Shown here in pieces: positions 25,645-26,434 of a stretch of 64,000 nucleotides of DNA. A program made the translations under genes and the position numbers. The stretch comes from Escherichia phage vB_EcoM-VpaE1. Each line of letters starts with the position of its first letter. Position 1 is the first letter of the stretch. The DNA lies in the sequence record KM657822; one strand, given 5' to 3'. The notes under the pieces are model-generated. The model was not told the origin of the DNA and did not search any database. It worked only from the letters and a program-made list of their open reading frames with translations.

Positions 25645-25735
25645 GTTTTGACAGAAGACCAATTACAGCAAACTTAATCTTATTCATCTGAAGGTAAATC
25701 GGACAAAGAAGAGATTTGGTCTGGTCATTAAGAAT

Positions 25736-25812
25736 TGCGGGTATAGAGAAAGGGCGTCTCACATGTCTCATTAGCATGGTATCGGCAGGTTCGACTCCTG
25801 CACCCGCCTCCA
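25736..25812 (+). tRNA. tRNA with CAT anticodon (Met or Ile2), atypical
   Basis: T-arm gcagg-ttcgact-cctgc, anticodon stem catgt/gcatg with loop ctCATta; 1-72 mismatch and irregular D-stem. Confidence 0.55.
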
Positions 25813-25897
25813 AATTTACAGAAGACCGTTTACAGCAAAATTAAATGAAATTTTTAGCGGAAAAAATTGAAAGATACGGTCTGGTAATACTAAACAT

Positions 25898-25974
25898 GGT
25901 TAGGAAGCACATAAGGTATGTGCGGTCGCCTGTTAAGCGAATGGCACAGGGTTCGAATCCCTGACTAACCGCCA
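25898..25974 (+). tRNA. tRNA-Asn (GTT)
   Basis: T-loop GGTTCGAATCC, anticodon loop ctGTTaa, CCA. Confidence 0.7.
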
Positions 25975-25983
25975 AATTTAAAT

Positions 25984-26071
25984 GTGTCGTTATCCCGTAG
26001 ATGGTAGCGGTGGGGACTGTAAATCCCTTGTCATTGAGACTCGGTAGGTTCGACTCCTACACGGCACACCA
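25984..26071 (+). tRNA. tRNA-Tyr (GTA)
   Basis: 88 nt with long variable arm; anticodon loop ctGTAaa; CCA. Confidence 0.7.
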
Positions 26072-26076
26072 ATAAA

Positions 26077-26154
26077 GGTTATGTAGTTTAATCTGGTTAA
26101 AATACTCCCCTGTCACGGGAGATGATGAGGGTTCGAATCCCTTCGTAACCGCCA
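26077..26154 (+). tRNA. tRNA-Asp (GTC)
   Basis: Anticodon stem ctccc/gggag, loop ctGTCac; T-loop GGTTCGAATCC; CCA. Confidence 0.7.
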
Positions 26155-26303
26155 ATTTTGAGAGGGCTATTTAGCCCCTCCCTTAAAGGGTTCTTACGAG
26201 TATTCTTTAAAGGAGCAGAAGACCAAATTCAGCAAGTTACTTAAAATTTCAAGCCAATTCAATTTTGAAAAAATTTAAAACTTGGTCTGGCTCAACAAAT
26301 TTA

Positions 26304-26434
26304 CAGAAGACCGTTTACAGCAAAACTTAAACAATCTATTTCTCGGTAAAGAAAAGGAGAAGGTTCGATTCCTTCACTCGGCAGATGTCGAGTTGGTGTA
26401 ATGGTAGCACTTAAGATGATAAACAACGGTCTGG
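26304..26434 (+). ncRNA. candidate Y RNA-like ncRNA with tRNA-like module lacking anticodon arm
   Basis: Terminal helix AGACCGTT/AACGGTCT encloses a T-arm (gaagg-ttcgatt-ccttc, 26359-26375), an acceptor-like hairpin (actcggc-agat-gtcgagt, 26376-26393) and a D-arm-like tggtgtaatggtagcac (26394-26410); located downstream of the Ro60 ortholog. Confidence 0.45.

Follow-up and report, generated by a model that had tools for sequence, protein, structure and literature searches.

Candidate Y-RNA-like elements in the tRNA array of a Felix O1-like phage, beside a gene for a protein with a predicted Ro60 fold

Four bulged stems in tRNA spacers

The DNA analysed here, a 64,000-nucleotide window of the genome of Escherichia phage vB_EcoM-VpaE1 (record KM657822), is a Felix O1-like phage region (Ounavirinae, Felixounavirus) with 97.6% identity to Shigella phage JK55, and many further Felix O1-like phages match it at 94–97% identity. 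ARAGORN found 25 tRNA genes on the + strand of the window (25483–30320). In the first part of this array lie four related elements (elements 1–4, Table 1), all on the + strand, all in tRNA spacers and all within a few nucleotides (nt) of tRNA ends, while most tRNA spacers of the window lack such a module. A gene on the same strand, whose stop codon lies 332–984 nt upstream of the element starts, encodes a protein with a predicted Ro60 fold. We propose that the four elements probably represent a new class of Y-RNA-like molecules that partners this divergent Ro60-like protein.

A sequence-only reading of the window had reported four spacer elements that share a start and a GGTCTGG end, and both features are present. 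The pattern CAGAAGACCNNNTWCAGCAA has four matches in the window versus 0.02 expected by chance, and GAAGACC...GGTCTGG pairs at 30–60 nt spacing occur three times versus 0 expected, the interior of element 4 being longer. The GGTCTGG of element 1 ends at 25724 rather than 25714, and each structure extends 3–4 nt further on both sides owing to a 4-base-pair (bp) outer helix.

The ends of each element pair in the same way. The outer helix (UGAC/GUCA, UUAC/GUAA, GAGC/GCUC and UUAC/GUAA in elements 1–4, respectively) is followed by a fixed asymmetric internal loop with three 5′ nucleotides (A-G-A here and A-N-A in relatives) opposite a single 3′ G, and then by an inner helix of 7–8 bp that always opens with AG/CU. 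After the inner helix come 2–3 linker nucleotides and the conserved, single-stranded CAGCAA; together they read UUACAGCAA in three elements and AUUCAGCAA in element 3, so that a single-stranded UACAGCAA is conserved 3′ of the 5′ strand of the inner helix. In the strings noted earlier, the C of CAGAAGACC and the final G of GGTCTGG form the innermost pair of the outer helix, AGA and G form the internal loop, and the inner helix starts with AGACC/GGTCT. The minimum free energy (MFE) folds of all four extended elements yield the same bulged stem. The interiors of elements 1–3 are A/U-rich, unconstrained and weakly conserved even among close relatives. No terminator-like site was found within the four elements, and an Rfam search of them at gathering and at permissive E-values returned only tRNAs and chance matches.

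Pairing was then evaluated by aligning the terminal parts of 28 distinct copies, drawn from Felixounavirus, Mooglevirus and two metagenomic relatives (neighbouring protein 54–55% identical), with the interior of each copy replaced by an artificial GAAA loop. Standard pairs filled 99.4% of cells compared with 77.5% in column shuffles, a level that 0 of 500 shuffles reached, and registers slid by 1–3 columns were only 25–46% paired. Nine of the 11 pairs change on both sides, with a covariation score of 0.62 versus 0.19 in shuffles. As the inner helix had been used in locating the copies, the pairing evidence for it is partly circular; the outer helix, which was not used in detection, shows 100% pairing with covariation at each of its four pairs. 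The claim of the outer helix applies to the Ounavirinae-like group, where its geometry is fixed, and in distant phages, with bulge sizes left free, it performed no better than random partners. Moreover, G·U pairs are present (ESh21 element 4 and Sf14 element 2 are examples), and these would be A·C on the other strand. Together with the strand specificity described below, the G·U pairs point to RNA rather than DNA. These results strongly support the earlier proposal of a conserved RNA helix, including the exchange of AA/TT (elements 1 and 3) for GT/AC (elements 2 and 4). The element copies are positional orthologues, lying between the same tRNAs across genera.

Element 4 differs from the others in its interior. 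As the sequence-only reading had noted, it is the sole element with T-arm, acceptor-like and D-arm hairpins, and elements 1–3 lack this tRNA-like module. A 4-bp stem, CUUA/UAAG, stands in the place of an anticodon stem and is followed by a hairpin resembling a variable arm (V), the canonical T arm, a closed acceptor-like hairpin and the D arm. In orthologues, covariation is seen in the acceptor, T and V helices. ARAGORN built a cloverleaf from element 4 solely after its halves were swapped, with the 48-nt stem module treated as an "intron"; in native order, neither ARAGORN nor Rfam called a tRNA in any of the four elements. The acceptor hairpin of element 4 lacks CCA, and several permuted copies in related loci (L006, L009, L014 and L015) carry (A)CCA in the acceptor loop, directly 3′ of the 3′ strand.

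A form in native order also exists, in Cronobacter phage S13 (L014 6896–7138, as two molecules at 6896–7016 and 7026–7138) and Klebsiella phage KP13-16 (L009 8939–9089). These molecules have ordinary tRNA ends and an encoded CCA, and their anticodon arm is replaced by helix′-CUG-AC/AU-AAG-helix-UAUUCAGCA; they thus correspond to the permuted form with its free ends linked through a small loop. GenBank labels the two S13 molecules as a "tRNA-Ser" and a "tRNA-OTHER" of 113–121 nt, and in REP7 a 131-nt "tRNA-Thr" annotation overlaps elements 3 and 4. The module accounts for such odd annotations of 113–131-nt "tRNA-Thr", "tRNA-Ser" and "tRNA-OTHER" genes in relatives.

Table 1. Positions of the elements, their parts and the accompanying genes and signals in the window
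Feature	Coordinates	Strand	Description
DUF5681 gene	23448–23819	+	123 aa, basic N-terminus; directly 5′ of the Ro60-like gene, same order in L005–L007
Ro60-like protein gene	23902–25317	+	Open reading frame, 471 aa; Pfam DUF2828 + DUF7788/vWA; proposed protein partner
Sigma-70-like promoter match	25336–25364	+	10/12 consensus matches; ahead of first tRNA
Sigma-70-like promoter match	25427–25456	+	10/12 consensus matches; ahead of first tRNA
Element 1	25649–25727	+	UGAC-AGA-AGACCAA-UUA-CAGCAA ... UUGGUCU-G-GUCA; between tRNA-Glu and tRNA-Met
Element 2	25816–25887	+	UUAC-AGA-AGACCGU-UUA-CAGCAA ... ACGGUCU-G-GUAA; between tRNA-Met and tRNA-Asn
Element 3	26213–26293	+	GAGC-AGA-AGACCAA-AUU-CAGCAA ... 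UUGGUCU-G-GCUC
Element 4	26301–26437	+	UUAC-AGA-AGACCGUU-UA-CAGCAA ... AACGGUCU-G-GUAA; encloses circularly permuted tRNA-like domain
tRNA-like domain of element 4	26326–26415	+	MFE fold; order V-T-acceptor-D
T arm of element 4	26359–26375	+	GAAGGUUCGAUUCCUUC (GAAGG-UUCGAUU-CCUUC, canonical)
Closed acceptor-like hairpin of element 4	26376–26393	+	ACUCGGC-AGAU-GUCGAGU; 7-bp stem, AGAU loop
D arm of element 4	26396–26410	+	GG in loop
Candidate fifth, minimal copy	26537–26555	+	Hairpin CAGAC-CUUAAGCAA-GUCUG within 146-nt structure 26438–26583

The neighbouring protein and the module across phages

The outer helix, the single-stranded UACAGCAA and the adjacent Ro60-like gene all go beyond what the sequence-only reading had described, and the gene next door suggests a likely function for the elements. 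Its product matches Pfam PF11443 (1.7e-29) and PF25043 (1.3e-43). An AlphaFold (AF2) model built on a 61-sequence alignment reached a predicted local distance difference test score (pLDDT) of 90.1 and a predicted template modelling score (pTM) of 0.89, in comparison with a pLDDT of only 44.6 for a single-sequence model. In a Foldseek search of the PDB with the alignment-based model, ranks 1–10 were all Ro60/TROVE structures, aligned over the full length (about 510–550 aligned columns) with E-values of 1.7e-8 to 5e-7 and template modelling (TM) scores of 0.55–0.66. These ten comprised Xenopus Ro60, human Ro60 complexes, and the Ro60 of Thermus phage phiLo together with the crystal structure of its TROVE domain; below rank 10, isolated vWA domains alone were found. 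Furthermore, the residues D279, S281, S283, T349 and D381 of the MIDAS motif (metal ion-dependent adhesion site; DxSxS...T...D) are invariant in the family. The model thus predicts a Ro60 fold for the neighbouring protein, with a TROVE-like ring of HEAT repeats and, after it, a vWA domain with an intact MIDAS.

Homologues were detected with tblastn in 708 GenBank phage records. Those of mycobacteriophages, 33% identical over the full length, are annotated as "Ro-like RNA binding protein", and others occur in KVP40, Listeria phage P100 and phages of Campylobacter, Staphylococcus, Enterococcus, Bacillus and Synechococcus. The protein family spans phages of Proteobacteria, Firmicutes, Actinobacteria, Campylobacter and cyanobacteria. 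The DUF5681 gene that precedes the Ro60-like gene might encode a further partner of the system.

The distribution of the RNA module was analysed in 80 viral contigs collected through the protein, together with GenBank loci. A first, looser descriptor gave 21 and 17 matches on the two strands of the window versus 0–6 (mean 2.4) in ten one-strand shuffles, and was then tightened. The resulting strict descriptor (AAG, a helix of at least 6 bp, 2–4 nt, C[AT]GCA[AT], interior, complementary strand, CTG) gave 138 matches on the strand of the gene over 1.22 Mb, compared with 5 on the other strand and 2 after shuffling of the sequence, and these matches contain 52 distinct helix sequences. Outside the Felix group (76 loci), 48 of the 59 strict matches lie within 1.5 kb of the gene, a region that makes up 24% of the bases. 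With a relaxed descriptor (any helix of at least 7 bp, CAGCAA, 3′ G), 52 of these 76 loci have a same-strand match within 2 kb and 4 have an opposite-strand match; the matches number 100 on the same strand versus 6 on the opposite strand within 2 kb, and 18 versus 12 farther out.

The consensus of 155 distinct copies reads U (54%), U (85%) and A (61%), followed by CAGCAA, with A before the helix in 65% and AG opening the helix in 61%. Variants adjoining the gene, identified by eye in individual named phages, extend the family to phages of Mycobacterium, Listeria, Bacillus, Campylobacter, Cronobacter, Sinorhizobium, Klebsiella and Vibrio. Mycobacteriophage BigCheese has three copies of the form GUGG-helix-UAACAGCAA...helix-CCAGU, of which the middle copy has a tRNA-like body; Klebsiella phage KP13-16 has five consecutive copies immediately 3′ of the gene; and variants are also found by the gene in Listeria phage P100 (three copies), Bacillus phage Thrax4, Campylobacter phage CP30A, Sinorhizobium phage phiM7 and KVP40.

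Six of 16 loci checked (L010, L049, L051, L080, L087 and L037) carry the module without any tRNA gene in the 10–13 kb fetched (none within 5–6 kb). Conversely, three tRNA arrays (from a T5-like, a T4-like and a Vequintavirus phage) contain 1, 0 and 0 strict matches on the array strand and none on the other strand (72 kb in total), and no homologue of the gene was found in the 24 kb fetched of each of these array regions. Because loci without tRNA genes carry the module and three arrays without the gene nearly lack it, the module is linked to the gene and not to tRNAs as such. It is close to certain that the elements belong to a conserved structured-RNA family tied to DUF2828 genes.

Other RNAs in and around the array

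Directly after element 4, a 146-nt structure (26438–26583, +) is closed by an 18–22-bp stem, AUUAUCUUUGUAGAUAAG.../...CUUAUCUACAAAGAUAAU, with an MFE of −46.4 kcal/mol and a z-score of −5.5. It is kept in L005–L007 and has no Rfam match. The hairpin CAGAC-CUUAAGCAA-GUCUG within it has a stem that covaries in the same three loci. This hairpin is a better candidate for a fifth copy than the spacer 28138–28228, although its membership is uncertain, as its motif is UUAAGCAA and not UACAGCAA. The sequence-only reading had pointed to a related pair at 28141–28225, and this is not supported: the region has GAAGACCGT in common with the elements but neither CAGCAA nor the CUG end, and it forms another hairpin, AGAGGUC/GACCUCU. 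The whole spacer 28138–28228, which also shares GAAGACCGU, was accordingly rejected as a fifth member and may at most be a decayed relative of the elements. Its predicted fold has −30.7 kcal/mol and a z-score of −3.2. Like two other long tRNA spacers (27145–27285 and 27472–27727, all +), it contains sequence conserved in relatives.

At 26911–26943 (+, context 26833–27066), the sequence GCAAACGACAATGTTTTTCTGGCAGTAGCTTGA reads ANDNVFLAVA*, which resembles the tag of transfer-messenger RNA (tmRNA); the E. coli tmRNA tag is ANDENYALAA. Seven relatives maintain the frame, their differences being synonymous (GAC/GAT, TGA/TAA) apart from one V-to-A replacement, and the frame lies about 50 nt 3′ of the best promoter match of the region (26833–26861). 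Rfam gave a weak permuted tmRNA match (32.5 bits) that ends exactly at 26943 and a weak tmRNA match, while ARAGORN called no tmRNA in the window and no T arm was seen by eye in 26868–27066. In addition, an unannotated tRNA-like gene is located at 27286–27368 (+), with a 7-bp acceptor AUGGGAC/GUCCCAU, G-CCA, a T arm GGGGUUCAACUCCUC and an anticodon-like stem AACGG/CCGUU whose loop, CUUCCAACA, is oversized at 9 nt. This gene is conserved in relatives, its stem covaries in L006 (GUAGG/CCUAC), and neither ARAGORN nor Rfam called it. The array seems to hold several further unannotated RNAs. Elsewhere in the window, where GGTCTGG occurs 14 times versus 4 expected, five copies fall within 160 nt on the − strand (59344–59502), with no evident link to the elements.

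Related loci also contain other RNAs. In Listeria phage P100 (L011), a large unannotated region behind a strong promoter (3385–3990) corresponds to 26,236–26,727 of Listeria phage CKA15, the most-read region in published RNA-seq data (PMC12282133). A link of this region, the one that the CKA15 study locates, with the elements was considered and discarded: it maps to a different unannotated RNA, no CAGCAA module was found in L011 3385–3990, and the region is probably another abundant phage non-coding RNA. Two metagenomic phage contigs carry full-length tmRNA genes called by ARAGORN (L088 9710–10199 and L096 8760–9250) with the tags EEVELAVAA* and EEVELAVAV*, 1.4–2.3 kb downstream of the Ro60-like gene.

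Relation to Y RNAs and competing explanations

The closest known RNA is YrlA (RF02553), a bacterial Y RNA bound by Ro60 (Rsr), whose tRNA-like domain is defined by the order V-T-AS-D (variable arm, T arm, acceptor stem, D arm; PMC4201824). As with YrlA, the elements lie beside a gene for a protein with a (here predicted) Ro60 fold, on the same strand and within about 4 kb; their 5′ and 3′ ends pair into a terminal stem with a conserved single-stranded motif straight after it; and one copy per genome, element 4, has a V-T-acceptor(closed)-D domain, while the shorter companions lack it, like YrlB. Indeed, the canonical YrlA of mycobacteriophage Bxz1 can be read in the same layout, GGGGAGGCAG-GCCGAGAG...CUGCCUCCCC, with its motif directly after the 5′ strand of the terminal stem. 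The CCA after the acceptor 3′ strand in the loop of some relatives recalls M. smegmatis YrlA, which is cleavable by RNase P and can receive CCA (PMC4201824). The elements differ from YrlA in their number (3–5 copies, often inside tRNA arrays), in the existence of the non-permuted versions with real tRNA ends and CCA, where the module replaces the anticodon arm, and in their proposed partner protein, which belongs to DUF2828/DUF7788 and is not TROVE/vWA_Ro60 by sequence. Chen et al. (2014) confined their search to genomes in which a TROVE protein was annotated, and listed 22 phages (PMC4201824).

Other Y RNA systems share part of this organisation. According to the secondary accounts in PMC4201824 and PMC12135203, which cite Green et al. 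1998 and Stein et al. 2005, metazoan Y RNAs have a terminal stem with small asymmetric bulges, a variable effector loop and several paralogues per genome, but as described there they use the helix GGUCCGA/UUGACU, have no tRNA-like domain, and are RNA polymerase III products that are not processed from tRNA arrays. In D. radiodurans, Yrn1 and Yrn2 are made in a polycistronic precursor with a tRNA (PMC4201824), as would apply here as well; they differ in the orientation of their tRNA-like features and in having a binding helix of the metazoan type. Thermus phage phiLo likewise combines a phage Ro60-fold protein with at least two adjacent Y-like RNAs, Yrl1 and Yrl2 (PMC12135203), and its Ro60 (PDB 9L5Y and 9KOP) is among the best structural matches of the protein of the window. 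However, phiLo has a recognisable Ro60 homologue, its RNAs were picked by a CGAA motif and lie upstream of the gene, and binding was experimentally shown there, whereas here it is presumed. Counter-defence via a host exoribonuclease was proposed for phiLo Ro60 (PMC12135203). Finally, circularly permuted tRNA genes and the two-piece (permuted) tmRNA share with element 4 the placement of the T arm and 3′ acceptor strand before the 5′ acceptor strand and D arm, but the elements have no anticodon or tag frame, and the join is a closed hairpin rather than processed ends.

Proteins of this kind have drawn attention in two other phages. In the Felixounavirus Bas63, gp130 is described as resembling Ro60 in structure, lies directly upstream of tRNA genes and counters the Ppl defence; its authors guessed that some annotated tRNA genes are possibly Y RNAs, and none was identified (PhageMaP preprint, PMC11482910). 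The position of gp130 is that of the Ro60-like gene of the window. Listeria phage CKA15 has a virion-associated Rsr-like protein, a homologue, with abundant unannotated transcripts nearby, and Y RNAs were speculated upon (PMC12282133). A description of the present RNA module was not found in the literature, and a search for DUF2828 gave nothing relevant.

From these comparisons, we suggest the following model. The elements would be co-transcribed with the phage tRNAs, and the two promoter matches at 25336 and 25427, as judged from their sequence, are likely the start of the transcript carrying elements 1–4. Release could occur as a by-product of tRNA processing, through an RNase P cut at the 5′ end of the next tRNA and 3′ trimming of the upstream tRNA, for which the D. 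radiodurans precursor provides a precedent. The ends of each freed RNA would then pair through the outer helix, the 5′ A-N-A/3′ G loop and the AG/CU inner helix, exposing a single-stranded UUACAGCAA, and stem and motif together may be the binding site of the Ro60-like ring protein encoded directly upstream, in parallel to canonical Y RNAs, which bind Ro60 via the terminal stem and the adjacent GNCGAA(G) motif. The variable interior would serve as the effector part, an A/U-rich loop in elements 1–3; the tRNA-like body of element 4, with its acceptor closed, might attract factors that recognise tRNAs or, in the manner of YrlA and Yrn1 with PNPase, a host exoribonuclease. The resulting ribonucleoprotein may act in RNA quality control or decay during infection, counter-defence included.

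Several observations weigh against this interpretation. The elements carry CAGAAGACC...UUACAGCAA and a stem with the fixed A-N-A/G loop, without the GNCGAAN0-1G motif of YrlA, which the Bxz1 control does show (GCCGAGAG and GGCCGAAGG). The Rfam YrlA model, which has a gathering threshold of 69 bits, gave no match at E-values up to 5 in 25300–30500; as a positive control, it found the Bxz1 RNA upstream of the Ro gene with 32.5 bits and an E-value of 2e-4. The neighbouring protein has no Pfam TROVE or vWA_Ro60 match, only DUF2828 and DUF7788, in contrast to the canonical phage Ro protein Bxz1 gp220, which has both; hhalign against the latter aligned 40 columns around the MIDAS with 53% probability, and a PDB sequence search returned nothing with the protein and a non-significant Ro60 vWA match (E 0.81) with the profile. 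Besides, the association was evaluated one way, with loci picked via the protein rather than the RNA motif, and 24 of the 76 distant loci have no descriptor match. The fold z-scores of elements 1–3 are weak (−1.3 to −2.0), so that the case depends on the comparative evidence. In some phages the module is just upstream of the gene, which fits a cis-regulatory role too. Given the lack of the GNCGAAN0-1G motif, of an Rfam YrlA match and of a TROVE protein by sequence, and despite the YrlA layout, the elements are filed as a distinct class, which would work like Y RNAs but be matched to a distinct family of Ro60-like proteins.

That upstream placement (15–200 nt ahead of the gene start in many distant loci, e.g. 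L042, L037, L051 and L013), combined with the unconstrained interiors of elements 1–3, could mean that the modules are cis-acting or titrating sites for the Ro60-like protein, such as autoregulatory operators in an mRNA leader or trailer, or sponges, rather than stable trans-acting Y-type RNAs. We regard this as unlikely, given that the elements of Felix-like phages, the Klebsiella phage (L009) and the mycobacteriophage (L010) are downstream of the gene behind promoters of their own, that the Felix-like copies sit between tRNAs, where processing would free them, that there are 3–5 copies, and that an operator would need neither the complete tRNA-like bodies of some copies nor the tRNA ends with encoded CCA of a few. 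The location in tRNA spacers and the frequent adjacency of DUF2828 genes to phage tRNA arrays, which could make the association indirect, would also agree with hairpins that direct RNase E, RNase III or RNase P or insulate the folding of the tRNAs, with no relation to the protein. The six loci in which the module flanks the gene far from any tRNA gene, the three fetched array regions with no homologue of the gene and next to no matches, and the lack of a module in most tRNA spacers of the window make this quite unlikely; moreover, a generic hairpin would need neither a fixed internal loop nor a conserved single-stranded motif of 8 nt.

Two further explanations fit poorly. Terminal inverted repeats in multiple copies resemble miniature inverted-repeat transposable elements, and HNH endonucleases are inserted in the tRNA region of related phages, yet elements acting as DNA, whether mobile repeats, sites for homing endonucleases or recombinases, or protein-binding palindromes, are very improbable in view of the strand bias (138 versus 5), the G·U pairs, the asymmetry of the conserved motif, the 52 helix versions that vary freely as long as pairing is kept, and the positional orthology of the copies, which argues against mobility. 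It is similarly implausible that a functional tRNA is produced from element 4, as a circularly permuted gene, via a circular intermediate, as in Cyanidioschyzon merolae, with elements 1–3 as decayed copies. The full cloverleaf that ARAGORN obtained after swapping the halves would favour it, but the "anticodon" reported there results from treating 48 nt as an "intron", and the long bulged stem and UACAGCAA take the place of the anticodon arm, so that no 7-nt anticodon loop can form. The junction is a 4+7-bp stem with the A-N-A/G loop and has no bulge-helix-bulge motif, and to our knowledge bacteria lack the archaeal/eukaryal splicing endonuclease. In addition, the acceptor hairpin of element 4 has no CCA, and what is conserved across all copies is the stem and motif, not the tRNA body.

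A class of Y-RNA-like molecules matched to the Ro60-like protein thus remains the explanation that we favour. Beyond it, we tentatively raise a bolder possibility, namely that the AG-helix/UACAGCAA unit serves a large unrecognised branch of Ro60-like proteins (DUF2828/DUF7788) as a portable "handle", which phages graft onto tRNA bodies in permuted and native topologies, and that tRNA mimics carried by the ring protein might act as decoys or adaptors in countering host defences by which tRNAs or nucleic acids are sensed or cut; the Ppl counter-defence phenotype of Bas63 gp130 would be a case in point. If so, these RNAs would be living intermediates for an origin of Y RNAs from tRNAs; the coexistence of permuted and non-permuted tRNA–handle chimeras is in any case direct material on the evolution of Y RNAs from tRNAs.

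In contrast to annotated tRNAs, the RNAs proposed here are 3–5 unannotated spacer elements with a defined stem and motif, on which binding, mutational and deletion experiments can now be designed. Unannotated functional RNAs of Felix O1-like and P100-like phages would also be of practical interest, since phages of both kinds serve in biocontrol and therapy. More broadly, the biology of Ro60 and Y RNAs would be widened by a DUF2828 family with its own RNA signature, which the Rfam YrlA and GNCGAA models miss.

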